From Balanoglossus misakiensis (Eukaryota; Animalia; Hemichordata): a DNA stretch of 64,000 bases. The notes under the pieces are model-generated. The model saw only the letters and a program-made list of their open reading frames with translations. It was not told where the DNA came from and made no database searches. The translations under genes and the position numbers were made by a program. Below, one piece after another: positions 21,550 through 64,000 of the stretch. The first letter of the stretch is position 1, and each line of letters starts with the position of its first letter. The stretch covers positions 3,929,924 to 3,993,923 of the forward strand of contig CM082597.2 of assembly GCA_040954595.2 (NCBI GenBank), in the 5' to 3' direction.

Positions 21550-21969
<420 letters not shown>

Positions 21970-22035: not shown

Positions 22036-22951
22036 ACTACCGTTGTGTCTTCGTCTGTATGTCAAATTGATTTAAAAAAGCGAAAATGTGAACAGAAAAC
22101 AGGGATGAGAAATTTGGGCTAACTACATTTGCATTTGTTGTATGGTTCACAAACCCTGCTTCTATTGTTCGCAACTGAAGCCCTATCACTACACACAATT
22201 CACACATGCACAGTTCTAACAAAAGTCCGCACCACTGATGGTTGCTATGCTTGATTGGGTGATCTGCATAAATCTATCCACACAATCACAAATGCGTAAA
22301 CAATGGTCATTACCCGTACACATACAGGCCATGAAAGCGAAGTAGACCCCGATAAATAACCACTATAGGGCCACCACATCCTCCCAATAGATAACTGCCC
22401 TACGTCTGTATTGTTAATTGTTTTTTAGGGTTACCGCGGCAGTAAATCACGTTTGTAGTTCGCATTTTCAGTTCCCCCTGGTAGCATCTGGACAAGTAAA
22501 CTTGCCAAGTGGTCTACCAGTCGAATGCGCGCCTCGAATCGCTTATAGTTGTTAATCTGCTGATGAAGCAGACTTGCCAAATATAGTCAACACGCAATTG
22601 AACACAAATACTCACCAAAATATTTCAATTTGGCTACGTGCCAGATTTGAACAGGAAGCGAATTGTTACAGATCACGCATTGTCACCCACATTGACCTGA
22701 TTGAGCTAGTGTAGCCTATATAATGATCAACCACTTAATCATTGACAAATGGCCACATAGCTAGCTGTACACCTTATAGTTATATTTAGGTGTTCCGTAA
22801 GAGACGTTATACAACCGAGGATTGATTCACACCAAGAACTGTTAGTACTAAGGCCTAACCAAAACTTTTGGATTTCATATCAAGTACGGGGGAAGCTTGG
22901 GACACTTAGTTTCTTGCTTGTGCAAACCAGCTACACTGCTAGACGAGTAGG

Positions 22952-24898
22952 ATGTCCGACTACTTTGACGAGCTTCTGGACGACCTCGGGGATGACTTCC
23001 TGAAATGTTCAATTTGCCACACCAGGTTTAACAACCCGAAGATTTTACCCTGCTACCACACCTTTTGCGAAACGTGCCTTGTCACTTCTCACAACGCGGC
23101 CAAAGGACGTCTGATCTGCGCAATATGTCGGAAGCTGTGGAAGCTCTCGACAGAAAATGTGGCCAGTTTGGACAACAACACCTTCATGGATTCTGTTCTA
23201 GAAATGGTGAGTGAACTACCGGAGAGAAAACCTGGGATTTGTGAATTGTGCGAGGAAACCAAAGCTACCCACATCTGTGTGGAATGCCAGCAGACGTGCT
23301 GCGGCAACTGTTTCAAAGTGCATAGAAACACAAATATCACCAGTGGCCACAATGTCCAAACGATTGACGTCTACAGGGAATCAAAGGTCAGGAATCCACA
23401 CTACCTACAACCGTCGACACGCTGTGGTGTGCACAGAGCGAATAAAGTGGCGTTGTTCTGTGATACCTGCCAAGTAGCAGTCTGCACAGCCTGCACGGTT
23501 GACAATCACCGCATCCCTGACCACGTGCACAGGAATCTGCTGGAAGTGACGTCAGAATTATCAGTGAGTCTGTCTGGGATGGTTGAGGATATGAAGGCAA
23601 AAGCCGCCGAAGCCTGCGAGAGTAGATTAGCTGCCAAGTCCGCGCGTGACGAGATCCGTCGACAATGCACTGCTCTGAAAGAGAAGGTCTCTCAAGAAGT
23701 GGACGACAAAATTAAAAGGGTAAGAAGGGAAGGGGAGAGACTCGTACTCGAAATTGAAGACTTTTGCGAGCAGAAGGTGAGCGTCGCCGAAGGAGAGGAA
23801 GGACGCATGGAATTCAAGTATGGCAACCTAGCGAGCATGTGCAGTTACTTGGAAACTCTGATTCTCAGAGGACACTTCCCACGGCTACTAGCAGCTAACC
23901 AAGACTCTTCTGGTCACATCGGGGATCTGTTGAAGACGATGACTGCACTAAAGCCACATGAGACCACCACACCATTTAAAATATCACAGACATTGCAAAG
24001 CGAGCTCGATGTCTTGAAATCTGATGCCTGTGTCTCAAAATGCTCAATCGAGAATATCCCCTCCGAGATTAAACATGAAGATTGTGTGATTCTTTACATA
24101 AAGACTAGGGATGGAGATGGGCGGGAGGTCATCCCTCGCCAGAAGGTCACGGTGACCTTGACTGATCCTCATGGCTCGCACTCTATGCTGGAAGTCAATC
24201 ATGGGATTGGGGTTCAATGTGTGTACATTAATGGCGAGGCAGCATCTGGTAGATGTCAAGTGAGTGTCGACATAATGGGACAACCAGTGCCGGGGTCACC
24301 GTTTGAGATACATTTCTTGTCGTCACCTGAACCACCACCACCACCACCACCACCACCATCATCACCATCACTGCAACCACAGTTTGTTGGGCCATCAGTT
24401 GTGCCATTACCAGCATGTGTAAGAGCCCCCTCAACACGGCTGTCAGGTAATGAGAGTAAAGGACAACTGCAAGCTCCATCTCCTCAATTTGCGCCATATC
24501 CAACCAACAGTCGCCCATCACCTCAAACTCCACCACCAAAATTGGCAACAAATACCACTATGAACCAAATGCTACCACAAGCAAAACGAGAACAGATCCC
24601 AAGGATTATTGATTCGAAGTCAAACAGGTACGGCATACTGCTGGAAAACCTACCACCGGAATATGTAGATGCAGTCATTCCACTCCAAACACCACTGGCA
24701 CAAACTCCCAAGGCGGAAGATGCACAGACTCAAAGAAAGAGCAAAAGCAGGCCAACAATCACAACGACACAAAGTAACACCACTGCAGAACCAATGGATG
24801 CAGGAGCAGCACCATCACCGTCACAACCAGCTCGCAGAAAAAAGGGGCCACCACCACCAGTTCCTCCCAGGAAAGGTTTATCAAAACGCAAAAAGTAA
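22952..24898 (+). CDS. TRIM (RBCC + filamin) protein with proline-rich tail, 648 aa
   Basis: RING CSIC...LPCYHTFCETC...CAIC, two B-boxes, coiled coil, filamin (VPGSPF), poly-Pro; ends PPPPVPPRKGLSKRKK. Confidence 0.9.
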   Translation: MSDYFDELLDDLGDDFLKCSICHTRFNNPKILPCYHTFCETCLVTSHNAAKGRLICAICRKLWKLSTENVASLDNNTFMDSVLEMVSELPERKPGICELCEETKATHICVECQQTCCGNCFKVHRNTNITSGHNVQTIDVYRESKVRNPHYLQPSTRCGVHRANKVALFCDTCQVAVCTACTVDNHRIPDHVHRNLLEVTSELSVSLSGMVEDMKAKAAEACESRLAAKSARDEIRRQCTALKEKVSQEVDDKIKRVRREGERLVLEIEDFCEQKVSVAEGEEGRMEFKYGNLASMCSYLETLILRGHFPRLLAANQDSSGHIGDLLKTMTALKPHETTTPFKISQTLQSELDVLKSDACVSKCSIENIPSEIKHEDCVILYIKTRDGDGREVIPRQKVTVTLTDPHGSHSMLEVNHGIGVQCVYINGEAASGRCQVSVDIMGQPVPGSPFEIHFLSSPEPPPPPPPPPSSPSLQPQFVGPSVVPLPACVRAPSTRLSGNESKGQLQAPSPQFAPYPTNSRPSPQTPPPKLATNTTMNQMLPQAKREQIPRIIDSKSNRYGILLENLPPEYVDAVIPLQTPLAQTPKAEDAQTQRKSKSRPTITTTQSNTTAEPMDAGAAPSPSQPARRKKGPPPPVPPRKGLSKRKK

Positions 24899-29733: not shown

Positions 29734-29801
<68 letters not shown>

Positions 29802-32506
29802 ACTAGGTGCCTCACTGATTGGTGTGACTGAAGACAAGTCACTGGTGACACGATCTGTGGGTTTCGGTGGCCAATGGAGTGTGGTCCCAAACAGCTGCTG
29901 TGTTACTCGAATCGCCGTTATGAATGACGGCACTCTACTTGGCGTTGGCGAAGATGGCTCCCTGTACACAAAACAAAGCCTGGAAGTTGGCAGGTGGACC
30001 GTCGTGGACAACAGTTGCTGCGTTGACGACGTTAGCGTTATGCCGGATGGTACAATCATAGGTGCGAGTAGGAAGAGATTGGTATACCGATCTGATCTGA
30101 ATGGTGAGTGGGTTATAGCTAAGAAGAGTATGGGCATCGTCCGAGTCGATGCTTTCAGCGACGGAAGATTAGTGGGCGTTACAGCAATGGGAGCTCTGAA
30201 AGTCAGAGATGGTATAAATGGACGGTGGAAGCTGTTGAAGAGTAGACAGTTTAAGGCGGACGACATTGCCATACAGCCAGATGGTGTTATTCTTGGTATA
30301 AAGAAGAGAGCCTGTGGAGTCCACGTTCGCAGTGACGCTGGGAGGTGGGGTTCAGAATTAACAGAAAGCAGATGTGTGATATCGATAGCTGCTCCTGGAA
30401 ACTCTGGTAAGTCACAGTTGAGCCTCAGAAAATTCTATCTGTCTATGATTGAGAGTATAGACAGTTTCATCAAGGTTAAATGAGGCATGCATAAACTAAC
30501 CTTTAAGTTTTACTGACTGACAATTATTGTGACTTTGCTGAGTTTATTTGTTGTTTTATTCACACAGAGAGTCTAGTAGAACCGGAGCCAACCGAGGCAC
30601 CACCACCACCACCCCCACCCCCTCCGACAACTGCAGCGCCACCACCCCCACCCCCTCCGACAACCGCAGCACCACCACCCCCACCCCCTCCGACAACTGC
30701 AGCGCCACCACCCCCACCCCCTCCGACAACAGCACCACCACCACCCCCACCCCCTCCGACAACAGCAGCACCGCCGCCCCCACCCCCTGAAACAACAGCA
30801 CCGCCAGTCGTAACAACAGGTAAGGAACTATGCCCAATGAATACTTATGGTGACGTATTGCATGCCATGGCATTTGCTGGGGGAAAAGAGCACACACACA
30901 TGCACAGAATTGAAAGACCGCGGGTGATTTAACATGGGAGCTACCGAGTGTCTTACCTGCCGTGCTGAACACAACACCACAGTCATGTTATGATGTTATT
31001 CCAACACACATGACAACTTTCTTCAGTAGCCTCTCAGAACAAGTGATGTTATATCCATTAGACGTAAGAAACAATTTAAGCAAGTACAATATTGAAAAAC
31101 ACAGTTAGGGAACCACTATTTATGATTTTACATGGAAGGCCTATGGAATCCTTTTAACAATACATTGTGATATCGCTACGACAGTTGTATTGACGTTAGG
31201 GGTTTATTAAAATCCATGAACCAGCTAATTTCCCCGATGTATCTAATTTATTATACAACATACGATTTATTCTTTTCTTGTGTCTCATTGTATTTTTAAC
31301 GCAATTCGTCTTTTTTTAACTTTATATACAAAGCTAAACCAATACCGCCTGGAAAACCATCAGGTAATTTAGATACAATAACGCTATTATGGATAAATGC
31401 AGTTTAAATTTATTGTCGATAAAACTGTCTTTCGAGTGGGTTTCTTGGTTGTGTTGTGTTGTGTTGTGCGGAGTTCTTTTGATTTCTGTCTTTCTTCTTT
31501 CTCTCTTTTATATTATATCATCGTTCGAGACACGCCTCTCTTCTATTCCATTTATAGGCACCTTGTATGGACTTGGTCTCGGCTATCTGATCTACAAACG
31601 AGATGGCATAAACGCGGGTGTTTGGGAAGGGCCACTTCCTAACAGTTGCTGCGTTATAGATTTTACCACTCTGGCAGACGGAAGACTGGTGGGTGTCGGA
31701 GAAGATAACCAGCTGTACGTGAAGGCTGATGACAGTGCGCCGTGGGTTGGACCGGTGGCAAATAGCGGTGATGTTACTCATATCACCGCGATGCCCGATG
31801 GTACATTGGTCGGCGTGGGTTCGGATAATCAGCTGTACACACGTCCAGGCGTAGAAGGTGTCTGGTCTGGTCCAGTGCCTGGTAGCTATGGTGTAATTAC
31901 GGTTTCAGCCATGCCTGACGGTGGATTGCTCGGTCTGGGCGTGGACGGACCGCTGTACCACCGTCCAGGTATTCAAGGAACATGGACTGGCGTGCATGAC
32001 ACTCGTCTTCTGTATGATGTCACAGTCGGCGCAGATGGCACAGTAGTTGGTGCTGAAACAGACTTCGCCATTTATAGCAAATCATCGTATGATGTACTGA
32101 CTGGTTGGGGAAATCGAATCGACGACAGCCAATTCATCTTTGCCGTATCATTTTCAAAGGTGAGTTATTAAATTTTCTTCATCAGAACTCATAAGTTCTC
32201 CGAGTTTATGACTCAGGATAGATTTACAAAGGTTGACAAGAATATATATTTACATGACTTGTATACTATTAAAAATGACGTTGACACAGATGGTGTTCCC
32301 GGATAGCATGTTTTTAGCTCATTATTGGTCCGTTAGAACACGCCAGCAATATAAGGAAGAAAAAGAAAGCGCTAAAACTGTTACACGGGCTGATTGACAG
32401 GCAATATTCATTGCTTTGAGAACACGTACGTTCTATAGTTTTATGTCTATACACTTTCATCCATTCCCAAATGAAATCTAGTTTCACTGTTTCTTTGCAG
32501 GTGTGA
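28771..32506 (+). CDS. Secreted tectonin/tachylectin-like protein: two 5-repeat beta-propeller modules joined by a Pro/Thr linker
   Basis: Exons 28771-28809, 29294-29333, 29807-30406, 30568-30819, 31558-32159, 32501-32506 in phase. Signal peptide MKFVLVLLACFLQ; ~40-aa repeats such as DGTLLGVGEDGSLYTK...W...NSCCV. Confidence 0.8.
29511..29800. repeat. Compound (GCT)n/(GAT)n microsatellites in a lectin-gene intron
   Basis: Visible trinucleotide runs at about 29511-29640 and 29723-29800. Confidence 0.95.
30598..30790 (+). repeat. 33-bp coding minisatellite encoding (PPPPPPPTTAA)n
   Basis: About 6 copies of CCACCACCCCCACCCCCTCCGACAAC.GCAGC. Confidence 0.9.
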
Positions 32507-33847: not shown

Positions 33848-36536
33848 GTATGCAAGGGACTGGCCATGGGTGACTGCAGGAGCTAGCTTCAGGACCGTAG
33901 CTCGAGGTTTGATTTGCCTTCCACACATAATAGACTCCGAGCTATGGCGCTGCAGCTAGCCATGGCCAATCCAAGTCAAATCTGTTCTGACCATTTAAAT
34001 CCTGCGTCTGTACATGTGTCGTGTAGTCGCTCCCCTGTCGTCGTCCCCTGTCCGAAGCGTGTCTTTCAATAGTTCTGTACATAATGTCCCTTGACATAAT
34101 GACCTTCATATTATACGCATTTCAGAAACATCAGACAATCTCGATGATGCGACCATTCCTGATCACCAGTACGGTTTCAGTGAACTCCCTGAAACGACAC
34201 ATGAAAAACCAAGCAATGTGTTTGAGTATGAAGATTTTTCATCCAAAGGTAGGCTGTAGTACATGTCATATGATCTTTTCTAATCGCTAACCCTAAGAAC
34301 TGTACTTTGGTTGTACAAGCATTGACTGTCCTGTACTAAGCTCTTCTTAAAACTTAATATTTCAGAGTGTCATGAAATGATGGTAGAAATCAGAAAGTAT
34401 GACGGACAGCACGAGTTTGGTCTTATGTTTGAAACAGCATGTAAGAAATTAGCACGTCTGTTTGAAGATAATTCATTGGCTGCAGCTGGTAAGTAATGCT
34501 TAAGGACTGTAAGTCCATTCTTAAGATCCGAGTGGCACTTACAAATATTTAAACTATTTTTTTTATATTATACAAATGAAAATTAAACTCTCATGAAAAG
34601 AATCAGACAAGAAGCCTTTAACAACAAAAGTGAATACATGTACATAATGTGGTACTACGCAGTGATATTTCTTGCCACAGGTATAGTGCATGAATGATTA
34701 AATTTTCTTGTATTTTGTTTGTCAACAGATGTGTCAGTTATTGTCCAGAGCCTTGCACAGCGCGATCACTTATCTGTGGAATTTCAGCCCACAGAAGGTG
34801 ATTTGCAGACAACGTTTGCTGATATCTACGCAAACCACTATGATTTGGACAGTGTGACAGTTGAATCGAGGCCGCTACTATTCGATTACTTTACCATATT
34901 CTTAAACCAGAATGAAACACAAGAAGCAAACAATGACTCAGATTTAAATAAACAACTGGCGGCAAACTCAGACGGAAAGTATGCCTGCGAGGTGTGTGGA
35001 AAGATTTTCTCAATGAGGGAAAATCTGAGGAGACACCTGAAAACGCACTTGAATTTTCGACCGTACACGTGCCTTGAGTGTGGCAATACGTTCACCGAGA
35101 ACCACTCCCTCAAAAGGCACCTCAAACTGCACGCCAACGACCGACCGCACTCGTGCAAAGAGTGCGGCAAGTCGTTCACCGAGGCCTTTTACCTGAAAAC
35201 GCACATGAAGACCCATTCGGACGACCGGCCGTACGCCTGCTCCGAGTGCGGCAAGATGTTCAAATTGCGCGGCAGTCTGCAGGTGCACCAGCGGATCCAC
35301 TCGGACGAGAGACCCTTCGCCTGCAAACTGTGCGGGAAAACGTTCCGCGAGAACGGCAGCCTGACGAAGCACACGCGGTCGCACACCAACGAAAAACCGT
35401 ACCTGTGCACGGAGTGCGGCAAGGCGTTCTCGCAGTCTAGCCACCTCAAAGTGCACCAGATGATACACGCCAACGAACGACTGTACGTGTGCAAAGAGTG
35501 CGGCAAGAGCTTCAACGAGAGCGGCACCCTGAAGAACCACGTCAGGATCCACACCAACGAAAGGCCCTTCGTCTGCAAGGAGTGCGGGAAGACGTTCTCG
35601 CGGTACAGCTGCCTGCAGAAGCACATCCCCATCCACTCGGACAGCAAGCCCTTCAAGTGCGAGGCGTGCGGCAAACTGTTCCGCGAACGGTGGATCTTGA
35701 TACAGCACGAGAGGACGCACACGAAAGTGAAACCCTACGTTTGCACGGAATGCGGAAAGGGTTACACGGTGAGCGCCAGTCTGAAAAGACACGTGCGGTG
35801 CCACTTTGACGAAAAGCCCTTCGAATGCGAGGAGTGCGGCAAGAGCTTCACGGAGAAGTGGATCCTGAGCCAGCACCTGAGGACGCACACAAACGAACGG
35901 CCGTACGTCTGCAAGGAATGCGGCCGGAGCTACACGGTCAAGGGCAGCCTGATCAAACACATGGAGAGCCACGCAAACGAGAGACTGCCAGCGCATGTGT
36001 GGAAAGAGTGCGGCGAAACTCTCATTCTGAATGACAGTTTAGTTGATCCATCAGTCATCAACACAGAAAGCGATTCATCGAGGAACCGGGTTAGTGAGGA
36101 TACCCGCACACAAAGTGACCAGAGTGATGACAGTTTACCAACGGACCAGGTTGTGTACACAGATGATTTTTCGTCGCAACAAGAGTCAGCCAATGCTGAG
36201 TGCAGTTCAACAATTAGCATTGACGAAGACAGTTTCCCAAAACAACAGCCTATTGGCATGGATGGTACTATTCCCGGGCACACAGACAACTGTTCGTCGG
36301 AGATGCAGACGGCCCTCAGAGAAGGCATGTTTCCAGAACACCAGCGGCCTGAAATCATGGACTGTAATTTACAACAACAGGACACTGATGCAGAGGACAG
36401 TAACTCCAATCATTATCAGCCGATCAGCATCGGGAATAGTTTTCTGGAGCAAGAATCAATTGGTGTTGTCGGAATGGACTGCAGTTCACAACAACAGCAA
36501 CAGGATGAACCAATAGATTATAGCTTAAAGAGTTAA
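33508..36536 (+). CDS. C2H2 zinc-finger protein (12 fingers), 4 exons
   Basis: Exons 33508-33634, 34126-34248, 34366-34488, 34729-36536; 12 CxxC...HxxxH fingers with TNERPY-type linkers plus one degenerate finger; C-terminal PIDYS. Confidence 0.88.
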
Positions 36537-40954: not shown

Positions 40955-43900
40955 TCATATACTGCTTATACATAAGGATGCATTTGTCCCTCCAAAACCA
41001 AAGCTGTTAGTTAGAGCAACTTTTCTTCCACATTGGGGCACTGTCCATGGTTGAGATTCACAAGGAACATAGTTGAGGTCAAAATCATCCGTTGTTTCTG
41101 TAAGGTTTAGTGTCGGTGGTAATATGCCCTGTAGATGAGACATATGAACGAAATTATTACATGCACAACCTCACAAATGCTAGTTCATATTCAAACCAAT
41201 TTTCCAAGAGGCATTGCTGATAAGTAAACATTTCCTTGGGATTTTCATACGACACTTTAGGAATGTACTGGCCATGCTGCAACATATCTTTACAACATTC
41301 GTGGCAGTTGAACCCATTCCAAATATCAGTGCATTGCTTGCTCAAAAATTTATGCTGGTTCCCTAGCCATCAACTCACCGTGTGGCAAGCCATCATAGTG
41401 AATGCAGCTTCCAGGGCCCCAGCAGCACCAAGTAAATGTCCAGTAGCACCTTTGGTAGAGGAGACTGCTAGATTCTGGCTGTGTTCACCAAATACTGTCT
41501 TAACTGCTCTGTTTTCTATTGCGTCTCCTGGAATTATAATAGTTTGCAATGAATGGGATGGGATGTACGAGAGGTTTAATCACACGTCAAATTTCAGTAT
41601 TTTCTCTAATACATTCATGTTAAGTTACTGACTCTCTCTCTCCCTCTCTTTCCCTCTTACACACACACACACACACACAGCTCTACATGATGAAAAAGCT
41701 AGCTGCGTCTAACTACAAACGGACAACAATCAACAAGAAGACAATAACTGTACATTACTAGTTGTGCATTACAAAATTCTGCTATTTACAGGAAATCTAA
41801 TTTTAATGCTGAGCGATGTTCTGGACGAGCACAACATACAATGCTCTCTGCTACAAGTGCACATGCCCGCATCACCTGTATTTGTACTACAGGTAACGCC
41901 AGTTGCTGTATAATAATACATTGTTACCCAGTGGAGTTGATGTGGCATGTGCATTGACATATGTTATGTCTTCTCTGTTCACACCACTATCTCTCATGGC
42001 TTGCTGCATACATCTTATTGCCCCATTCCCATCCTCACTTGGGGCAGTCATGTGACTTGCATCACCTGTTGTCATGGAAACAAAGCCAGAAATGTAAATC
42101 TTTGGCCAATCTAATTTAGACGAAAAAATGTGAACATTAATGCAATACTTGAGATGTTGGCTTTGGATCTGTTCTGAAGTGCAATATGTATACACAAAAG
42201 AATTTTTTTTCTTATCCTAGTACCAACCTGACAGGCCATATCCCAAGATTTCTGCATACATACTGGCTCCCCTGCTGATTGCATGGTTGTATTCCTGTGG
42301 AAAAAAAAAGTTATCTGAGCTCCATAGTTGTTAGACATTGCTTGAATTCAGATAACAACTAATAACTACTATACTATTCTTAGCCCATATTAAGTTAAAA
42401 ATAATTTATTTCACGAAATATCTATTTACAATTATCTTTTCAATTTCCTGTAATTTGAGACTTCGATTTACATCTCTGTCGCATTAGCTTATTTAATACT
42501 CTCCCTATGATATTCTTTCTTGATGATATTTATTAACCTGTTAATCACCATGGTTCGCCCCAACTCCATTGTTTCAATGGACCTTTATACTGGCAAATGG
42601 GGGTAAAAGGGTTAAATGTATGTTAAGTTTTTCTCGGTATATTAAATTCAATCAATGTATAAAATAATAAACCATGAATAATTCGAACGCCATTTTCCTG
42701 TTGGAATATGGCCAAGAATGCATATTAATTTTACACATATCATATTTTCATATGTTTGTACACGCTCACCTCCAGTACAACTACGACAGCGCCCTCACCC
42801 ATCACAAATCCATCTCTATCCGGATGGAATGGTCTTGACGCTTTCTCTGGACATTCATTGAACTGTGTACTCAATGCTCTTGCTCTAAAAAGCAACAACA
42901 AATTTGATGATGCAAAATTATTATATATTTTTCGCTTGGGATAAATCAATTACATGTACTTTCTTTGACCCTACAGAAATGCTCTAGGCAATATACTTGC
43001 CCCTGTAAGCACAGAACATTTATCAAATACTTCAAACATTAGCATACCTCCCATTTCAGATTTTTTATGGGATCAAAAATCAAAAACAGGATTCACCTGC
43101 AAAATCCTGCCATGGCTAGGGGGTTAATGGAGGCTTCAGTTCCCCCGGCAACCATGACATCGGCATCTCCATTCCTTACAAATCTCATGGCGTCTCCCAA
43201 CGCATGGCATCCAGTGGTGCATGCGGTGGATACAGCATGGTTTGGCCCCTGTAGACACAGAAAAAAATAAATCCTAGAAATTGACATCAATACTTTGGGT
43301 TGCCATGTGAACAGACCGAGATCTATGGTGCTGCCTAAATCTCTCATAGAGGAGCGAGTATGTGCAGCTATACAGACCCAACATTTACATTACAATAAGT
43401 ATAACATTTTCAAAAGAAAATGAGTTTCTTACCATCAGTTTGTGTTTGATACTGATGTGGCCAGCTGCCATGTTCACAAGAATTCTTGGCACAAAGTATG
43501 GACTGACTTTGTTGTAACCCTGTTGATATAAAATATATTTCATAAAAAGTATGGTTGGCAGAATTACCTCACAAGAGGTGGTTTCACATGACTTGTGTTT
43601 CTATACTTTTTTCAACAAACTAATGTTGTAAAATTTGAAAATTCAATCGAGGTAGGAAGACTGACAAAACAGGATTGAAAATATCTTTTACCATTTTACC
43701 TTAGTCCTCAGCGCAATCCCGGAATCCACTATTTCATTCAGTCCAACCATTCCCATGCCAACTGCTACACCCTGAGAATGGAGCAACTCCAATAAACATG
43801 GGTATCAGGACAGCTGCCCCCTGGGTATTTAACATCCACATGTTCCCAAACTTACCAATGGGGGAGGTGTGTGGTGGATGAATGTCCAGGGGGTGTATGT

Positions 43901-49951: not shown

Positions 49952-52900
49952 ATGTCAGCCTTATACACAGCCGTGGTTAAAACAGAAGAAGAAGTCTGCA
50001 CAGACGAAGAGGGAGAAGAAGAAGATGATGATGAACTGTTCTCCACCCCGCAGGCAACGGTTATCAAACCGCTCATGTCACCAAGGAAACGGATCAAGTT
50101 GCCTGACGTGCCTTACGGGAAGAGGAGATATCATTTACATCGACAGGCCGTTGTCAAAAGTGTCGTTTATCTTGTTCTCCTGATTTCCTTGCTCGTCGGA
50201 ATGGCTTTTCTCAGCCTCCAGATCATCAAAGCGCTTGTGAAAGACCCCGGAGGCAGTCGCCATGGCAGCAGGCCCGTGGAGGAAGAGAAGATCGTCAGCT
50301 GCTCTAAATTCAAAGTAGAAGAGGTGTGGACTCAGACACTCCATCAGTTGCTGACGGAAGCAGCTTTCAGATTGAATGACGTGAATAGAGACGGAACACC
50401 TGACGTGGTGATTGGATTTGCAACAGGTGAGTTTGTTTCCATGACAACCAATGATGTGTGTTGGGATTTGTCACTTTCTTCAAGTCGCAAGGGTCATAAA
50501 ATCATCCCAAGGCACCCACACTATGCCTCACACAACCATCATGCATGTTTTTGTTCTAATTATTTTCTCCTTAAGGTATTTTGAAACTATAGTGCTTCCA
50601 GGCTGCATGACTCCCCTTACAAAAAATGTTTTATATATTTCTATCGCATTCTATAGACTTTGATTCTTCTATAATACATGTACATGTATTTAAAAGAAAA
50701 CAAGTCAAAAACTATCTATAGATGTCCACAGAAATGTTATAAATCATAGAAATTCAATAGGCTATAGAATTCTATAGATGTCTATAAAAATATTTTTTTG
50801 TATTTAGGGAAGAAAATATGATTAAGACAGAATATTTATAAGGTTGTAAAACTGATCCAAATAAGTCTCTGTGGCCCACAGGTGATTTGCTGAATCAGTA
50901 ACTGAGCATACATGTATAACACACCTGGGAATTGAAAGTGTAATTATAGCTGACAGTCTGTCTGCATTCAACGTTTCTACACACTAGGGTCAATATTCAC
51001 ACATATACAGTGTTCAGGGAGTTTGGACTCGACCTTTGAAATTTTGGATTTGCGTCGATTGAATGTTTACCCTATTTACTGCATGGCCTCTCTGACTGTT
51101 GACATTTGATATTTTCATAGTGGCATTAATCTTCACGTGTGCGTAGTTGTAAAGGTATAGACTTGCTCCAAGTCTATGAGCTGTAATTATGTCGGAATAA
51201 AATAAAATACATTTCAGCGATGTTTGTTAATAAGCCTAAGTACGCAGTAATGCCCTGAGAATTAAGGTTTGTGTGATTCATAGTTACAGCCCATAGCAAG
51301 CAGCCATAGCAAACATTCAGAAGTAGCAAAAGGTACAAATGGTTACATTGTAAGACTAAATTTATAGTTAATGTTTAAGACACTGTGGTCACATAAAAGT
51401 GACATAAAATACACACACACAATGACAAAACAGAAGCCATTAGTCAAGCAACAAGTTGGGTAGTCTACTGTGAATGTTAATCTTGTAAACTGAGTTGAAC
51501 AATATGACCTTACATGGTTAAAAGGGTGTGGCTAAGTCCTTCAGTGACCATGTGGTGGTGCCCTTTTACCACATGTTCACCCAAGTGAAAACCAGTGATT
51601 TTCTTAAGAGATAATGTGTAGACGTAGAATGTTTCTATTAGGGAGAATTATAAGGAGTTTGAATTGCACAATTGCAACTTAGTGACGAGAGCTTGGATTG
51701 GCATGTCTGTATCTACCATTCACATTTACTCCATTCATAGGTGCTGACCGTTACTTCGCAGAGCCGATACTTTGCGATCTCTACTTCAACGGCTTCCATC
51801 CCTGCCTTGGGGGGCTTCTTGCACTGGACGGGAAAACCGGTAAAGAATTATGGAGGCATTATTCTGAACATGAAATATTCGGTGTCAATTGCAACGTCGA
51901 TATTGACAGCGATGGAGTCAGAGACTGTTTGGGTGCGGGAAGGGGTGGGGTAAGTTGTCTGCTGAAGTTTTCTCTAAAGCACTGCAGTCGTTGTTTAAAA
52001 CAAAAAATGATTTGTACGATTTGCAAATTAAGTGACTTTATGATGCTATTTTAAAAGAGTCACATTGCAACGTCGACACTATTAAAAACTTAGTTCTGGC
52101 CAGTTCTGTAGCCAAGCAAAGAGCATGAATATGAGCTACCATTTTAACTTGCCTTTTATTGTCAGCCTCTTTTTTCCCAATAATGTCCAACTACTCCTGA
52201 GCCATAGGTACAATTTACTATCATTTGTGGACAAAAATGCAATCACCTATAATTCTTCTTTATATATATGAATAATAAAATAGTACTTTCATGTATAGTC
52301 ACAAACATGATATGGTATGATGCATTAGATTTTCATTTTCCCAGGCAACTGTGGGTTCATTGGCATTGGATTAAATTCTCACTTTCCATGGTGTGTGATC
52401 ATAGGTGACCCATATTGGATGTTTGACTCCCCAGGTATTCCATGCAGTAAGTGGGGCTACAGGAAAGTTGCTATGGCGATTCGACGAACACGAAGCCAAG
52501 GTGGACATCAGTAATTTGTACACGCCTCAGTTTATCCGCGATATGAACGGTGACGGGATACAAGACGTGCTGGCTATGCATGGAGGGGATCCCCTCAGAC
52601 AACCTGGTAAGTGTGTAGTCACTAAAGTACTGTCTACAGTACAGATCTAAGTGTTGTTTTCCAGTTTTCTAACAGTGTACTGTCTTGAAATTTTGTTGTG
52701 ATAATTTTTTTTAAGAATATTAAATATTAGTTTAATTTTTAATTTTTTCAGATGATTTTGACAAATAATCTCAGCATCCATGTTCACTTCCAGGTCACAT
52801 TTTGTTCAAATTGTCAACGTCTTAATTTTAAGTAGGCAGTACTTATCTATCGTAGCATTATATAGCCACAACATACTTGTACATGTATACACTAGCTTGT

Positions 52901-55900
52901 TGTTGACACATTGTCATTCATGAATACAAAGAGCACCCTCTGTGGTGATTTAAGCATTTGTCATGTATGATAGCGCCCCAACGGTGATTTAAGCATTTGG
53001 CATATCTTTCGTTTGTAAGGTAAACCCGTGGAGAAGATAGGCAGACTTATATTTTTCAGTGGCTCAACTGGGGAAATATTGAAGTGGGTACAGGTTCCTG
53101 ATAAACAGGAGTCTTACTATTCTCCACAGGTACATAATGTGCATTTATAGCCGTTAAAGTTATTCACCAATAATCCATTATATTGTCACTGTTGTAAATA
53201 TTACTGGTAGTTAATTCTTGTTGGTTTGTACATGTTGTGCAGTTTTATTGTTAGTAATAAGTATTGTTACTTTGTAACTTGTTGACTGTTTGTGGTAGTG
53301 GTTGTATATCTCGATGCTGGTTATTGCCGTCTGTAATTTGTGATCGGTTGAGTGTCGTTGCACTGCTAAGGTTAATGTTTACTTCAATTTGTCCAGAGTG
53401 TCTTGACTTCAAATGCAGAAGTAAGATTTGCTTGATTGTCTTGAGTTTAGATTATATTTTTTATTGAAATCTACTTATTAAATGATATGAGTAGGAACAA
53501 ATATATGCAAAATGTGATATATACTGTGAGAACAGAGGGTGGACTATACTTTGATCATAGTTCGAAACATCAAGAATGTAATAAAATACATAACATGTAA
53601 TCTGAAGAAGATAAAAAAACTGCAAATTGTATAATCATATTTATATGTCAGTACTAAAAAAATATATAATGGTTTTCATGTGCGCTATTAAAGCAAGTTC
53701 ATCTCAAAATACATTTATATTCAAATACTAAATTTAATTTCATATGCAGTATTTCATGAAAATGTAGTAGATCTGCATGTTTATCCTGTAAACCCTGCGT
53801 GTATTAAACTTCAAAGTGTACATCAACTCACTGAAACTATAATGTTATTAGTTATATAATACATCTATAATATTACTATATACTTTCCAAAAATTAGCTT
53901 ATCTTTTATAATTCTGTGCAGTACATCCCTTGATAGAGTGAAACAAGAAAATAGCATCTCAACATGAGATACATCAGACAAAAACACACTGTGTTTACAA
54001 GGAGCTGTAAGCAATGATTGCCTACACGGTTGCATTCGCATTAATTTTGTTTTTCTGGCATGACATGGTAGCATGTAAGTGACGTTCAAGTCAACATAAA
54101 ACACCCAAGGAGGGGAAGTAATTGTAATGCCCAGAATAGAAGCCAATTCAAATCTATTTTCTTCCCACTTCCCCACTACAGTCAAATATGTTTTAATTAG
54201 CACCTCTATATTGTGGAGACTTCTCTATAGTGGCAACTCCAACCCACATCCCAAACTCTAAAAGAGGAAGTTAGCTGGATGAAATGAACTCAATAAGGCT
54301 GACTTCCTTTGATAGGAAAATTATGTACTTTACCCTGTCTTGAAAACAAAAAAGCTGGGTTTTTTTAACAACCCTTCTAGTTGTATGGCCTGACCTGAAA
54401 AAGAAAATCATCTGTGAATATCTTGGAAGTTTTCTTCTTGACTGACAAGGTGTTTCCGTTCATGGTGAGAAAATAACCCCTGTGCTTAGTGCTTTCGTAG
54501 ACCACCTTGCCGGAGTCCCCAATCTGTGTCTTGTAAAATAGCCGTGGGTCATCAGTGGTCTTGTCCCTTGAAGGACTGGACATTCTGTCTGTGACGTAAA
54601 CTCTGAATTGGGATCTTTGCCGGATGTAGTACACCACAATGCAGCCATCGGTGTCTGCAAACTGTAGCAGGGTTGGCCGTTTCTGTCCCGTGCTTCTGGT
54701 TTGGTAGTAGTGTTCTTTGATGTGATCTGAATTAAAAAGTAAAATAAAATTGAGCACACCTACTGCAGGGATTCTTGTGTCAAACTTCCATCGAAACCTC
54801 TCCACCAATTTAGATTTTGTCCACCCCATTTAAAAAAGCAATGAAGTTCATCTGATTTAATTATTGCCATGAGGAAGTGGACATAAATCTAAATGAAAAT
54901 CTTAAATTTCCATACCCAATATACTTAGAAGTTCCTATCTTACTTCCCCATATTTCTGCCAAGGTGCATGAAATTAATTCAATTGTACTTCCCAAAGAAC
55001 TTCTTGTTCCTGGTAGAATGAATTTTACTGACAAAGAAGGGGCAAGTCTAAAATATACCACTGATTTATTTTTAACCCCAGGTATTAACCTAAGACATTC
55101 GACCTACTTATCATGTTACCATATATGGTAACTTATAACGTTTGAATGTTTCTTCATAATGTTTTTTTTTATTTTCAAGTAAAATTTCTAATTCTAACCC
55201 AAATGTCAACCTAGGTATAATGTGACTTTTTTGACGTTTTTGTGATTATTTATTTTTAATGATTAAATCTGCTCAAATATGCTCAATCACTAGTAAAAAC
55301 TAAATTCACGACTTAAATGGGCAAAATATTTGGTATCTTGACTAAAATTTAAATGATGGAAGTCATATCCATGTGTTACATAAATGATCATGACAAACTG
55401 TGATTTGGCATATTTTTGTATGTTGAACATCAAACATTATCAAAAGAAACTTAATTATCAAAAATAATGTCAAAAGTGAGCAAGTTTGTCTTATTAATAA
55501 TATTGCAATTGTTGATAAGTGAATTGCTTCAAAAAATACGTGAAAGGTAAACATAACAATGATAAATTACAGTATCTAAAATTACTGTCATAGTTTCTTT
55601 ACAACAAGCTACCTTTCCACTGTCAAAATTTGGTCACTGAGCCTGCTAATGGTTAAATGAACATGTTGACTAAGTAAAAGAAGATGGAAGGTTGAACGTA
55701 CACATGCAGGTTTATACTCACAATTTGATGCTGATGCTCTGGGAGTATAGGGCACTCCCATCACCATTCCTGAGTTACTTTTCAGCAAGCAGCACATAGT
55801 ATGTCTTTGTAGTGACAAAGCCACACTCTGCACAACCACATCTCCGACATCACTACAGTGCCGCAGTGGTATCCTGGTTGCAGAGCCCTCGCAGATGGCT

Positions 55901-58900
55901 TCATGCTTTTTCCGGATGACCACAGTTTCAGCTGCGACCACATATATGTATTTGCTGGCAGCGGCCGGGCACACCTTGGCACTGATGTCGCTGACTTGTC
56001 TCACTAGCTTCTTGGTCGACTTGGAAAACATCTTGGTCTGTTGCAAGCAAGCCAGAATAAAAAATAAACAATATAGTATATGAATCATGTACTCTAGAAA
56101 TAATACTTCAACACTGTTTTATATTATATAGATCAAGCAACACCATTAGAGTCCACAGGATTAGCCAAAAAATTGGCGACGAGTGGGTAAATAGGTCACC
56201 AGAACATTTATGACAAATAATACAAATTACTAGCAAATGTCACAATTGTTGTAATTATTTTTTTACTAAACTACACAGTCTGCTTGTTCATACCAGGAAT
56301 CAGTTTAGCCAATTTAACAGTGTATAGACATACAAATTTCAAATGTAAGCTGCATGGTTCATAGTACAGCAAAACACTGGAGAAAATACAATAGTTAAGG
56401 CCAAGAGATCTTCAAAAATTCAAAATGAAATTAAGTTTTTCTATAGCTAGTCTCTTCTAGTCTTTTCCTGTAGTTGTGTGTGATTGTCATACTCACTAGT
56501 GTGTTACTTCCAATGTCTGATTGAATAGACAAAGATATCTATTAGTTGACTACGTCTTTCGGTGTGTACTCCTGTGAATCCCTGTAGACTATGAATGTGT
56601 GCGTGCTGGGGAAAAGACCTTAAGTCTTTATATAGCTACCGTCTGGAAACCACAGATAATATTAGATTTCTTGAAGGGTATCATATCTGTGGATTAAAGT
56701 CCGTAGGGGATTTCCCAAATATTTTGGACACCACCACATCGTGTACACTCTGCACTTTGAAACGAGATAGTCAAATTGTACATTAACTTCCTGATTTTTG
56801 TAACAATAGGCGGGGGTGGAATTCGAAGGGCACCGTGACCCTTCACTGGAATGGCACCTAAAGACAGGTTTATTGGCCAAATGATAAAATACCGGTATAC
56901 CAAATGGAAAGCATAAGAATGTGAATATCAATGTTGACTCAGTTACACTGATAATTTTTTTATCCTTTTGCAAACAATGATTGTGTACTACTTCCCTATG
57001 TACTTTGCAATGTTCTTCTGCAAATTACTGGCTACATATATAATTATGTAGTGTTGTACCATGAACTTTGGGATTGTTTGTTTTTATAAAAGCAGAACGT
57101 CTTTGTATTAAGCAGGGAAATTATTATCCAGGGAATTTTCACCTAAAAAGTTTTAACTATAATACTGGTGTTGAAGGGTAGAAGATATAGTCAGTTGTCT
57201 TGATCAGATAGCCGATAATGGCTCCAAAACATTCTAGGTTAGAAACTCACATAAAAAAAAACATATGTGAACTTGATGATTCACTATGAGTTGGACTGCC
57301 TACATTTGTGATATCATTACCCCTCCCAGCTTTGGTGGTATGGGGATTAACTTATGTCCGCTACAACTGAACTGGAATCACCATGGGATTATACTCTAAA
57401 TGATTCACCTCGTATGATAGCCATGTAAGCCAGTTTCTGAGCGACTCCAGCTCGTGGACTGTATAATTATCCAACCCCAACTTACACCAGACTTTTTCCC
57501 ATTACACAGAGATGTGATTTAATTGAAAAAAATGCAAATTAAGGTCACAACCTGCACAATGAGCTTTCAAAATACATGGTACATACAGTATATTCCATTA
57601 GCACCGTGTTTTCATCATTAATAATTTTAACTTTTTTGGTATTAAACAGATTTATTATGACAGAAATGGCAGAGAGGTTGTACTGTTTGGCACAGGCGGT
57701 GAAACGCATGGTGGTTCTTTGTGGGCGATTGGCTTACAGGAACTATTTCAGGGACATATACATCAGGTGAGGATTATAGATTTCGATTAGATTCCAATGT
57801 TCATGGGAAGTAATGCATCAGCTGTTCCGCCAATGTGCATTTCAAATTTTTAAGTTCACATAAAGGTTTCACAATAATTCAGCAAAGACAAGCATATGAT
57901 GACAAAATATAATAAAGTTAACAAAAATAAATTACTGGTTTCTACACAGGCAAAGGAACTTTACAGGGACAACTTCAAAGGAGTGATGACCCCTCCTGTT
58001 CTGGTTGACATAACTAGCGATGGTGTCACAGATATCATCATGGCCATGTACAATTCATCAGTGCTTGCTATTAATGGAGACACGTTTGACTACATATGGA
58101 ATTTTACCATGCCGTTGTCAGAGTCATACAGGTATGGTAATTACAGATTGAGTGTTGAAGAATGTTTTCATTCAACAAAGGAGTGCAGAAAAAAATCTCT
58201 ATGGTGGTGCCGCAAAATAAAACATAATACAACAGGATTTTCATGTATTCATGAAAAATGAAACAATCTCAGCAAACAGTACATTTCAGTCATATTCTGG
58301 TTTCTTGAATTATGATATGGTACCCTATGTAACTTATATAAGTTGTCAGTAAAACAGTAATAATAGTTTATAGTTAATAACTTGTTCTTAAAATTCATCA
58401 TGTTTCTATATTACATGTAGTACCCCAGCCCCTGGCTATTATAACACTGACAATATACCAGACTTCATGGTTAAGTATGCACATGGACCAGGATTTCCTA
58501 TTTACTACTATTCACAGGTAATGTGAACTGTGTATCAGTCAATATCTCATTTAATTTACATCCCTATTTAACACTCACCAACTTAAATATGTTTTTTTTT
58601 TCTCTACAAACCTGTCTAAACCTGAAAACTAAAAGACTAAGAAATTGTTGAGTTTACAGAAGTAACATGGTGTCCTATCTGAAAGGGACTGGAAAAGCTG
58701 TTCAGATTAAACAGGTTTCTTCATTAAATAGTGTTTGGATTAGACAGGTTTGACTATATGATTTTGATTGAATTCTCGTCAAATTCAAATATCACTAATG
58801 GCACAATATCCACTTGCTTTATTTTGGATAAGCTGTTTCATAGTACACTGACATTTGTTTGTTTGTTTGTTTGTTTGTTTGTTTGTTTGTTTATAGAGCA

Positions 58901-61900
58901 CCATTCTAGATGGCAAAACAGGCAAAGCATTACTGAAACCGTACATAAAAGACACAATAGGTTCTCAGAACTCACCCCTGACTGTGAGTATGGAAGGGCA
59001 TGGCAATGACATCTTCCTCTACTGGATAAGTGACTGTGAGAAACATGAAGGTGAACATGACAAAGAATTCACATTTGTGGAAGGTTTGTAAAGATTTCAA
59101 AATTTATGTTATTCTATTCAGATGTTGGCAGACTGAAATTCTCAATACACATTGTACAGTAAAATGTGTCTTAATTACAAAATTAACCTATAGCTAATTC
59201 AGTTAAGTGTGTAAATTCGCTAATTTGATATGCCTCTAATTAAAACTTTTCTCTATATTGTAACCATGGTGAAAGTGTTGTTATAGCTAAATTACCAGTA
59301 CATGTTATTGGCTATCAGGTAATTGCAGAAATATATGATTCTGTGGCCAACAAAAGTTCATTTGCATAAAGAAGTGTGCCGCAACCATGATCTACTTAGA
59401 CAAATCCTGTTAATCACAGACTAGTTTGGCTGCCTTTTAGTGTTTCTGTACACAGGAATAAGTGCTGTTTTTATGTCTTTGATACAATGTATGTCGTTTT
59501 TTATATCACATCATAGGTACCAATGTACATGAACAAAGTCGGTCAGATTTGTGTAAACTACGATTCAATTCCAAAGAATATACCAGACTGTACATGATGA
59601 ATAGACAATCTGGAGCCCTAGGAACTGTTTTGTATGATTCTGGTAAGTCGTCAAATTTTGTGCTCGACGAAAGTCATGATGGTCAAACTATACCCCAAAA
59701 TGACAACCAGAATATATTTAAAGGGAAGTAAAAATGCAAAAGTCCCCTACCACAACTTTAAATTAATTTTAATCAGATATGGTCTTCACATATTATTTAA
59801 CAGAGGAAAGATGGGAGCTTGAACATCGGAATGTGGTAAATACATCAGCTATGGCTTGGCAGTATGTCCAAAAACATCCACAGTTCAAGAAAACTTACCT
59901 GAAGCACCTTGAAAGACAGAAACAGCTCGAAAAAGAAGCAGAGAGTGGGCAGAAAGTTGACAGAACAGAGAATAAAGATTTTTCTGTTGAAGCAGAAACG
60001 TCAACGCCAAAGCAGACACACAATTTAATGGGCAAGAAAGCTAGGAAGGAGTATTCACAGACAGCTGGGCAGGAATCAGGTCCTACCAGAAACAAGAATT
60101 TCGGAGCTGATAGGGATAATGACAACAGGAATGATTTGGAAAATTTGTATCGTCGCTTTGGTTATCGTTATCCCCTGGGAAACCCACCAAATGCAGGCTA
60201 CTGGGAGGGGCAAAGACCAGGGAGATATCCGTATCCAGGTGTTTCAGGTACAGCTTGGCCGATGGATCCTGAAATAAACTCAAGACAACTTGAAGATAGA
60301 GTAGACGGGAGAGGAGGCACTGATCACAGATATGGCAGTAACGCGAACTCAGGTTATCAAAATAGTTTGCGAGACCGTGATCGACCTATCCCCGGAGGCC
60401 AGACAGGAATTAATGGACAGCACCAATATTCCACAAATCCGTATCAGACATATCATACACAAGTACCCATGGCTCCCACGGATGAGCAATCTGAATCGTT
60501 AGACTATCCCAGTGAGTTCTGGAAGTATTTCTTTGGTGAGCCTGAGGAAGGGGAGTATCTGAGACCTGCAGTGAATGAGGGCTATTCAAGTGGACACAGA
60601 CCAGGCAAACAGGAAGAAAAAAGATCAAAAGCTGTGAAAACACAAAATAGCCACATTGCGGCACAAACTAACTCTCAAACTCTAAACAAGAAATCTCGAA
60701 ATTTAGGGAGACTGGACAAACGTTCGACAAGTTTTTCTGATGTTGACGTTAACCATAACCTCAAGAGATTCCAGAAAAGAAATATAGCATACAATGGCGG
60801 CGGCCAGTTTCAAAATTTAAGGCATAGGTTTGATAAAATTTTTGTGGCAGAAGATGATCTCAGTGGCGTACATAGCCCATATATTGACAATCATAATGTA
60901 AATCATGAAGATGAACCAACACAAAGTTCAAAGGACGGACAAAAAATTGAGGTGCGAGAGGATACTACTGTTGAGAGAAAGGAAATAAACCCAAAACTGT
61001 CAGACCACTACAAACAAGTGGATCAAAGTGAAAAATTTATTAAAGAAATCCAACCAAACATTCGCAAGAGGAAGAAACGGCATGTTGGTTCACATGATGA
61101 TGGAGGTCTTCAGAGACTTTTGTCGACAGGGACGTTAGCTCCTACACTGAACTCTTCCAGCAGGGATGCCGGGCATAGCATCGATGTAATCTTTGCAACC
61201 TACTGGTTTTACCCTGCTAAGACTAGAGTTGTGTTTCCAGATCAACAGAAGTGTATTGATGATATGATGAACGATGAAGTTCAGAGATTTGATCCAAATA
61301 GTAAGTATATAGCCAGTAAATAAAACACTGCTTGTGTACAATAGATCCTATTGATCAAACAGTATAAATTTAACATACCGTTATGTCAGGAATTTATGAT
61401 TCACTATTTGTGTATTAGTCCTTGGTTTATTGCAAGACATGGCATTTGACTACTGCATACTGTTTTGAATACATGTACACTATTTGAACAACTCTACTTC
61501 AGCAACATAGCCCAAATACCTTCAGACTTACTTATTATTTTCTGATTCAGATGAATTTTATGGTGATGATCATGATGCATATGAAGACAAAGTGAGAGGA
61601 AAATGTCTTGGAGAAGGTGAGTAAGGCATGATCCATCTGTACACACACCAGTTGCAACACGATAAAATTAACACATATTATAAACACACAAAAATACCTA
61701 CCAATAGCACAATACATGCAAATCTGTATGAATTAATGTGATTAATGATACTATCTAAACCATTTTCTCCTTTATTTTATTTTTTACTCAATAACAGCTG
61801 TGTCTGTAGTTATTTTATTAGTTATTTTTTCCTCATAGTCTTTTTTATCAGTGGATTTCGCATGTACAACTTCAGTTGATCTTTTTACAAATTATGGTTT

Positions 61901-62253
61901 TATTTTGTCAGATTTTTATTCTGTGCAAATTTGGAGCTATGTAGATATGGCCTTCTTACACTGATGCAATGTTATGTCTATCACTTCTACCAGATGATGA
62001 TGATGAACACGAAGACCATGATGTCCACGAGTCTCAGACCAACTACAACCCATTCAACATCCACATGGGACAGATGACAGTTTACAGACTGACTCTGAAA
62101 TGTACGTGTGAAGGCGATCCCAGACTTGAAGACACCAGCAACCACTGCAGTAAAATATTACCGTTTGATCAACAAGAATGGGCGGCATACATGGGGACAC
62201 ATGGAAACAGTCTGTTCAACTCCAGAGAAAATCACCAAAAAAGGTCTCATTGA
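49952..62253 (+). CDS. FAM234/ITFG3-like type II membrane protein with FG-GAP-type repeats, about 12 coding exons
   Basis: Acidic N-terminus, one TM (VVYLVLLISLLVGMAFLSL), DVNRDGTPDVVIG, DIDSDGVRDC, DMNGDGIQDVL, DITSDGVTDII. Approximate exons 49952-50427, 51741-51949, 52435-52606, 53020-53129, 57650-57766, 57950-58131, 58421-58517, 58898-59083, 59517-59642, 59804-61300, 61551-61617, 61994-62253. Confidence 0.82.
50612..50810. mobile_element. AT-rich MITE-like element
   Basis: Imperfect terminal inverted repeats TCCCCTTACAAAAAATGTTTTATA and TATAAAAATATTTTTTTGTATTTAGGGA, with internal CTATAG palindromes. Confidence 0.5.
54377..56031 (-). CDS. Nested leaderless beta-trefoil protein, IL-1/IL-18-like, 219 aa
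   Basis: Coding exons 56031-55722 (donor GTGAGT) and 54726-54377 (pyrimidine tract + CAG) join in phase 1. C-terminus RLFYKTQIGDSGKVVYESTKHRGYFLTM...LSVKKK...DDFLFQV resembles the last strands of IL-1-family proteins. Confidence 0.7.
56627..56941 (-). promoter_or_regulatory. Putative promoter of the nested gene: TATA, NF-kB and AP-1 motifs
   Basis: TATATAAA (minus strand, 56634-56627); GGGGATTTCCC at 56706-56716; TGACTCA at 56935-56941; probable non-coding exon 1 ending at a GTGAGT donor at 56496. Confidence 0.65.
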
Positions 62254-62336
62254 TGCAGTTGGCAGTAATTTGCTAATGAAAAAACCCTTATGTATGTATT
62301 GGATGTTTGTCAAAATTTCCAACTCAAGTGGTACGT

Positions 62337-62504
62337 ACATACATACATACATACATACATACATACATACATACATACATACATACATACATACATACAT
62401 ACATACATACATACATACATACATACATACATACATACATACATACATACATACATACATACATACATACATACATACATACATACATACATACATACAT
62501 ACAT
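62337..62504. repeat. (TACA)n microsatellite in the 3' region of the FAM234-like gene
   Basis: Roughly 40 perfect units. Confidence 0.97.
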
Positions 62505-63737
62505 AAATACACACACATGCATGCACATTTATAGTATGTGTACCGGTATGATTGATGTATGTGTGATGGATATACACTGTTTTATGTGAACAAATATATG
62601 TATAATATATATACATAAAGGTGTGCATTATAGGCTGGAAGTCTCCTGTAGACTATATAGTGGAATACAATTGAGTAGCTGAACGAGAAACTATTCTGGC
62701 ACTATATATAGCTGTATAGTCTAGATTTATGCGCATGTACATTTAATACGTTGTATCCTATATGTAGAACATATTGTTATATGATATTATCTATACAGAT
62801 CTATATATACATTATATACATTAAATAGACATACAGCTTTAAGTAATAGCTAATGAGATTGATTGAATATACATAAGATTATATATTCATATAACAAATC
62901 AAGATTTTATTATTTTTCTGACAATATGCCTGTTTCCTGCTACATGATTGTTACAAAGGTGCATTCAACAGGTTATCAAGTCTTTCAGTGTTTTGTCATT
63001 TATACAAAACAAAACCATATGTCCATGCATGTATTTACTATTCGTTATCTATGCGGAAAAGACACTCAATATCCAGTGTTTCCAATACAAGGGCAAGGTT
63101 CTGTGCACACACACAGCGTCCATGGTTTATATGTATGAAATATAGGCTTTCAAAATATCCACCAGCTCTTAGTACCTGGAACATAATACACAAATTTAGT
63201 ACAGTTTTATAATACATGTACAAACATGCATAGTTAATGCAAACAACACATTTCTTGGAATAGCTATTGTCGTACATGTTTTGAATACAAATGTGAATAT
63301 GTCAACATATTAACCTAGAGTTACACGTCGATAATAAAGAGAGCTTCATGTTTTATGCAGAAATGTGTGAGCGTTTTTATTTTATGTCCCTTATAGCCAG
63401 ATAAACATTTCGCTCGCTTCATCTGGACGTCTAGACGTTAACCATCTAAGCATGGATATATTGACGCTTTAGCAGGACAATTTTGTGATAATATAACTTA
63501 TAAGGTATCGTATAAAGCTTATGAGAAACTGAATTGGCATCCTTTGCACATTGTTTTCCAGTAACAAATGTTGAACAGAGAAATTGAAGCCAGTTCATGC
63601 TATTCTAGATGTCATCATTACAAAGTTCTATAATATGTAATTCCTATCGTGTTGTGTATATTGTTAATCATTCTCACAAAGTGCCCAGACAACTAAGTGG
63701 TATCTTCTGAACTGGGTGTGGCCGTGTTGTCATAATG

Positions 63738-63926
63738 AATGATTTATATGTCAACCATTAGAATGTGCATTAAGACAAATACATGCCGAAATAGCTTTGG
63801 AGGTTTCTGTTGTTTAGTGCACATTAATTTCAGCTCTTCTGAATTGGTTGTTATAATGATTTATATGTCAACCATTAGGATGTGCATTAAGACAAATACA
63901 TGCCGAAATAGCTTTGGGGTTTCTGT
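63738..63926. repeat. Local direct duplication (~118-bp period)
   Basis: ATGATTTATATGTCAACCATTAG.ATGTGCATTAAGACAAATACATGCCGAAATAGCTTTGG occurs twice. Confidence 0.85.
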
Positions 63927-64000
63927 CATGTTTAGCACACGTTATTGTTGTGTTTACAGGACTAATGGATTTTCAATAATCATTCCACTTACCCTAAGTG

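Follow-up and report, generated by a model that had tools for sequence, protein, structure and literature searches.

The contig CM082597.2 of the hemichordate Balanoglossus misakiensis (assembly GCA_040954595.2) carries, within the 64,000 nucleotides (nt) analysed here (positions 3,929,924 to 3,993,923 of the forward strand; hereafter the window), a spliced gene that is nested antisense in an intron of a FAM234-like gene and is conserved with Ptychodera flava. Its 219-amino-acid product very probably adopts a beta-trefoil fold over approximately residues 60–217 and belongs to the IL-1 family. We consider it probable that this conserved gene of two coding exons, whose predicted IL-1 trefoil is not preceded by a PDZ domain, encodes a leaderless cytokine induced by infection; an immune function is inferred from what is published on IL-1anc proteins (see below) and from the biology of mammalian IL-1.

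The coding region is split between two pieces of a minus-strand open reading frame (ORF), one of 310 nt (56031-55722) and one of 350 nt (54726-54377), which together provide 219 codons and a TAG stop. An original prediction made from the letters of the window had joined these pieces in phase, and the junction stands at exactly these coordinates: it is of the GT/AG type, the donor reading GTGAGT and the acceptor (...TTCAG) being rich in pyrimidines, and the P. flava protein is colinear with the joined product. The intron between them (55721-54727) is in phase 1 and 995 nt long, and lies at what we take, from the gene structure of IL-1beta and IL-18, to be a conserved place before trefoil strand 4. 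A further acceptor AG (56039-56038) sits six bases of 5′ untranslated region ahead of the ATG. The GC content of the exons is 0.50 and 0.46, compared with 0.30–0.35 in the intron and flanks. Possible poly(A) signals occur at 54197, 53738, 53465 and 53249, and the entire predicted transcription unit is contained within the host intron.

On the plus strand, a series of exons between about 50051 and 62226 corresponds to two beta-propeller proteins of the FAM234A/B type; no acorn-worm protein was among the matches of this host-gene search. Because two of these exons, 53021-53129 and 57650-57766, encode stretches that follow directly on one another in both proteins, the 4.5 kb between them constitute a single host intron, in agreement with the placement first proposed.

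A search with the second coding exon retrieved one protein among 59 candidates, an uncharacterised P. flava protein of 222 amino acids (P0001; XP_070549042.1, XP_070549059.1), which is probably the orthologue. It matches exon 1 at 59 of 93 positions (E 3e-38) and exon 2 at 83 of 114 (E 6e-62), and against the full product 143 of 214 alignment columns are identical (67%), colinear and in frame over the splice junction. Both proteins keep the motifs DVGD and YES. Since the P. flava protein matches both exons in this way, a chance or dead pair of ORFs in intron DNA is very unlikely, to the point of being almost negligible; the absence of stops and frameshifts, the canonical splice sites and the exon-like GC content also argue against it, as does the existence of a RefSeq model for the matching protein. 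Annotation had been supposed to miss such a gene easily, but this model shows that it did capture the P. flava orthologue, although the entry is unnamed. The identical P. flava sequence stands under two RefSeq accessions, which could be isoforms or a duplicated gene.

In several searches IL-1 comes out as the nearest of the trefoil families. By ESM Atlas features, the top three matches of the P. flava protein are IL-18, IL-18 and IL-37 at 0.94 (203, 199 and 193 of 256 features shared), and IL-33 and IL-1 follow lower in the ranking. For exon 2 of the B. misakiensis gene, IL-18 and IL-1 clusters come first (0.92–0.91, 167–174 shared, recognition 2515); fascin and fungal trefoils reach 0.85–0.86, with about 100 shared. 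This ranking may be biased towards vertebrate IL-18, as invertebrate clusters of the family are possibly too small to appear. In Pfam, IL1 (PF00340) is the sole family listed for the P. flava protein (E 0.026, 14.6 bits against a gathering score of 25). A PDB sequence search with exon 2 gave 15 matches at E≤10, all of them IL-18 (E 0.16–1.1), and four of six matches in a PDB profile search are IL-18 or IL-37. These weak IL-18 matches fall on the same C-terminal stretch for which a parallel to IL-18 had originally been noted, and YES at residues 180–182 stands in the expected context, aligned with FES of IL-18.

Of the structure models, that of the Atlas points the same way. For the Atlas model of the P. 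flava protein (predicted template modelling score 0.61, predicted local distance difference test (pLDDT) 0.60), all ten structure rows listed are trefoils, five of the IL-1 family and five ricin-type. Scored over the target, an IL-18 fragment fits best, with a template modelling (TM) score of 0.79 and 147 residues aligned over residues 62–216. Two AlphaFold2 models of our own, built from shallow alignments, reached pLDDT values of 31.1 and 34.6, and fold searches with the second gave no significant match. As regards the anticipated 12-stranded trefoil, the Atlas model of the orthologue is trefoil-like, and our AlphaFold2 runs yielded no confident 12-strand model.

Relatives of this kind are already in print. 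IL-1anc proteins, most with PDZ plus trefoil and some PDZ-less, have been described across Eumetazoa (Fontenla-Iglesias et al., Nat Ecol Evol 2026, PMC13736523; preprint PMC12338702); statements on this source here refer to the parts of its text, Table S2, supplementary files and peer-review file that deal with the points named. Inspection of the IL-1anc table by eye yielded four motifs, all of which both orthologues contain in the same order. They are a P-V/T-x-L-x-F strand, D-x-R-L/I-F, ES with RG-x-F/Y-L after it, and F-x-F-x-L/V at the end. None of 20,000 shuffled sequences reproduced them, a figure that is inflated because the motifs were picked afterwards. The gene resembles the IL-1anc family, above all its PDZ-less members, in being leaderless, in its predicted C-terminal IL-1 trefoil, in its origin in an invertebrate deuterostome, in ES followed by RG-x-F/Y-L and in D-x-R-L/I-F before the ES motif. 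By eye, the P. flava protein and Saccoglossus SkowIL-1.1 also have ES-x-KYRG-x-x-L-x-x-SGK in common. Jawed-fish IL-1anc (nIL-1F; shark, sturgeon, bichir and fugu) can likewise be likened by eye to the gene described here in a P-V-V-L-N-F strand with an aromatic Y-Y strand before it, FES-x-x-H/Y-RG-W-F, a terminal F-x-F-x-L/I and D-V/I-V-V/I-x-S ahead of the trefoil; unlike it, they have a PDZ domain and a longer Cys-rich linker.

The protein itself is devoid of both a recognizable leader and a PDZ domain. A hydropathy scan, the only method applied to this point, found no hydrophobic leader (maximum Kyte-Doolittle 9-residue mean of 1.14 in the first 30 residues), as the original prediction of a protein without signal peptide had it. 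Pfam lists no PDZ match for either exon piece or for the P. flava protein, whose model is only 222 amino acids long, and neither 54727-55721 nor 56040-64000 encodes a PDZ-like motif on its minus strand. PMC13736523 counts PDZ-less proteins in the family, namely crinoid AjapIL-1.1, crayfish PclaIL-1.2/1.3 and shrimp PvanIL-1.2, and we therefore group the gene with these. The three hemichordate entries of Table S2, one from P. flava (XP_070538561.1) and two from Saccoglossus, all differ from it in having PDZ. Relative to that table, the gene would be the first PDZ-less hemichordate entry.

A number of observations weigh against the assignment to IL-1 and the function proposed. All IL-1 sequence matches lie below significance or the curated cut-off, the P. 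flava protein alone has no PDB sequence match, and a bacterial cluster ranks eighth among its Atlas features (0.93). The strict PROSITE-type IL-1 signature, as quoted in PMC7144542, is absent from both orthologues, and the key motif is YES rather than (F/L)ES. Only a single orthologue was found. The gene has one coding intron, whereas in IL-1anc genes the trefoil is reported to take up three to five exons, and two central introns are conserved. Furthermore, two results could favour a beta-trefoil of another family (a ricin-B or AbfB-like lectin, or a fascin-like or FGF-like protein) that resembles IL-1 through the common fold: exon 2 matches AbfB, another trefoil, at E 0.011, and Pfam IL1 is not listed for the exon pieces, and the TM scores over the query tie, at 0.55–0.60 for the five ricin-type rows and 0.60–0.62 for the IL-1 rows. 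We give such an origin little credence. Neither orthologue has a QxW motif or any Trp, making a ricin-type lectin less likely; the internal threefold repeat is slight (one of three pairs at p 0.02); Atlas scores and shared-feature counts clearly favour IL-1 over fascin and fungal trefoils; and no FGF occurs among the Atlas and PDB matches listed.

Some of these objections are softened by what is known of the family. The relaxed signature, aromatic-x-S...aromatic-L, is present in both orthologues, so that the partial match originally claimed is retained in this form and lost in the strict one; the quoted signature is that of vertebrate IL-1, and in the relevant passage of PMC7144542 the version in IL-18 is termed only IL-1-like. 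YES departs from the IL-1anc consensus, as do several listed members (YRS, LQS). HMMER also missed invertebrate IL-1anc members (PMC13736523), and the sub-threshold Pfam score therefore does not define the IL-1anc branch. The single coding intron suggests to us a descendant that has lost introns, and we do not take it to place the gene outside IL-1anc; the last three IL-1beta introns are given as phase 1, 1 and 0 (PMC4880838). IL-1-family membership is thus likely by the agreement of several weak lines, none decisive alone, and the IL-1/IL-18-like character first suggested for the protein is upheld by the Atlas feature and structure searches, the sub-threshold IL1 match of the orthologue, the weak PDB matches to IL-18 and the by-eye agreement with IL-1anc.

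The gene is an unlisted member of a family whose invertebrate representatives were published in 2025–2026, so nothing is overturned, and the find is less surprising than was first assumed. The P. flava orthologue is absent from Table S2, and the accession prefix XP_0705 occurs once across the supplementary files. The IL-1anc authors may nevertheless know the gene, because a tree image referred to in the peer-review file is said there to contain over 80 additional members from ambulacrarians. Their catalogue started from a search for PDZ domains and, they warn, possibly missed divergent members; a compact gene that lacks PDZ, lies on the opposite strand within an intron and has no name in RefSeq is of the kind that such a catalogue may miss. 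PMC13736523 and its preprint were the only papers on IL-1anc found, and none was found by title on a hemichordate or acorn-worm IL-1 or interleukin-18 gene. In a separate matter, the partial Table S2 row LreiIL-1.2 looks by eye like a membrane protein of hydrophobic character and differs in this from the other IL-1anc rows, possibly a table error.

The sequence upstream of the coding exons could accommodate a dedicated promoter. A non-coding first exon without ATG can be predicted there, and in-frame stops lie upstream of the start codon. Of 2,000 simulated sequences, 1.4% contained an NF-kB consensus site 20–300 nt before a TATA box, and 7.6% contained any NF-kB consensus site, by a test designed post hoc. 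This arrangement suggests inducibility, and it is somewhat likely that the gene is transcribed on challenge from a promoter of its own with kB, AP-1 and TATA elements. Induction of IL-1anc has been described in lamprey, sea urchin and anemone (PMC13736523).

If the protein is such a cytokine, the precursor would be made in the cytosol, might be cut by a caspase after Asp64 of DVGD and would then leave the cell by unconventional release, its target being an Ig-TIR IL-1 receptor. The caspase step is less likely than not. DVGD is the sole DxxD in either orthologue and sits before the predicted trefoil, and a cut after Asp64 would separate a pro-piece of 64 residues from a domain of 155 amino acids. 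In sea urchin, one IL-1anc protein undergoes cleavage after a DEPD motif (PMC13736523). Against the scheme, caspase-1 did not cut most of the IL-1anc proteins tested in the same study, and the stretch DVVVQS is similar by eye to the linker that joins PDZ and trefoil in the IL-1anc of sturgeon and bichir; owing to this similarity, Asp64 may be structural. As for its origin, the gene is probably a duplicate of an IL-1anc gene of the PDZ type that lost the PDZ exons and some trefoil introns.

An IL-1-family trefoil need not be an induced agonist. The product could instead remain uncut and act as a receptor antagonist or damper of the IL-1Ra or IL-37 type, or as an intracellular or nuclear precursor of the alarmin type, which we regard as unlikely. 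IL-37 and IL-33 are among the top Atlas matches, with IL-37 also matched by PDB profile, and the protein is strongly basic, with an isoelectric point of about 9.7 in both species. An N-terminal RQ-x-S resembles by eye the annotated nuclear localization signal of several ambulacrarian IL-1anc proteins, and sea urchin coelomocyte IL-1.3 and IL-1.4 were not induced (PMC13736523). On the other side, the protein has no conventional signal peptide, unlike IL-1Ra or lamprey IL-1.1, and the kB/TATA arrangement suggests inducibility. Antagonists can also be NF-kB targets. In the same N-terminal region, residues 9–14 (55987-56007, minus strand) form an L/I-x-R-x-x-S motif that is kept in both species and presumably fits MK2, PKD or CaMKII kinase sites; a similarity by eye links it to the RQ-x-S at the N terminus of several IL-1anc proteins from ambulacrarians.

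Returning to the induced leaderless cytokine, its closest vertebrate parallel is pro-IL-18, which with IL-37 and IL-1beta supplies the top feature and sequence matches, at PDB E-values of only 0.16–1.1. Both have, here by prediction, a short pro-piece and an Asp immediately ahead of the trefoil, and the predicted mature domain of 155 amino acids compares with 157 in mature IL-18 chains. A bolder proposal, which we hold to be speculative and rather improbable, is that the gene stands for a deuterostome lineage of its own that lacks PDZ and is what pro-IL-18 corresponds to in invertebrates, caspase-cut at DVGD and with its own NF-kB promoter. If so, IL-18-type cytokines would be older than chordates and no vertebrate offshoot, which would bear on the claim of a separate origin put forward in PMC5861070, where IL-18 is argued to share no common ancestry with the IL-1beta cluster. 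With its 64-residue pro-piece, single conserved DxxD and nearby kB site, the gene offers a simple test case for the question of whether the two-signal scheme, NF-kB induction and then a caspase cut, is at work in invertebrate deuterostomes.

Features of the nested gene and its host intron (window coordinates)
Feature	Position	Strand	Remarks
Host intron of FAM234A/B beta-propeller gene	53130..57649	+	matched exons ~50051 to 62226
Second coding exon	54377..54726	-	residues 104-219 and TAG; predicted trefoil strands 4-12
YES..RG.F.L-type stretch, residues 180-190	54467..54499	-	counterpart of (F/L)ES motif
PTLLQF, residues 121-126	54659..54676	-	PVLLEF in P. flava; resembles by eye the PVVLNF strand of jawed-fish IL-1anc
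Phase-1 GT-AG intron	54727..55721	-	995 nt; place between trefoil strands 3 and 4 by inferred numbering
First coding exon	55722..56037	-	ATG at 56031; residues 1-103 plus 1 nt
DVGD, residues 61-64	55840..55851	-	candidate caspase site or conserved linker residue
Predicted non-coding first exon	56497..56605	-	~110 nt; GTGAGT donor at 56496; start placed from TATA box
TATA-like box	56628..56634	-	such boxes are common: 54 on the window's minus strand
NF-kB consensus site	56706..56716		~70 nt upstream of TATA-like box; one of four such loci in 64 kb
AP-1 consensus site	56935..56941		one of seven in the window

Among IL-1anc genes, one paralogue per species neighbours GCC2, ESD, EIF2A or IL-1R; the gene described here is nested in FAM234. 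None of these four was recognized among 61 of 228 ORFs of at least 70 amino acids that were scanned, a scan that small exons would escape, and the window ends 8 kb away. Upstream of FAM234, on the opposite strand, lie exons of a beta-ketoacyl synthase gene (41890-43389, minus strand). Farther off is an apparently intronless TRIM2/3-like cluster of four long single ORFs (8857-11058, 13190-15553 and 17308-19794 on the minus strand, 22943-24895 on the plus strand) with RING, B-box and filamin domains, two of which have NHL repeats as well. A lone histone H3 ORF (21550-21966, plus strand) lies between two of these TRIM genes. The region 29800-32168 (plus strand) holds two tectonin-domain ORFs that flank a proline-rich repeat ORF, possibly a single lectin-like gene, and a C2H2 zinc-finger array gene is found at 34698-36533 (plus strand).

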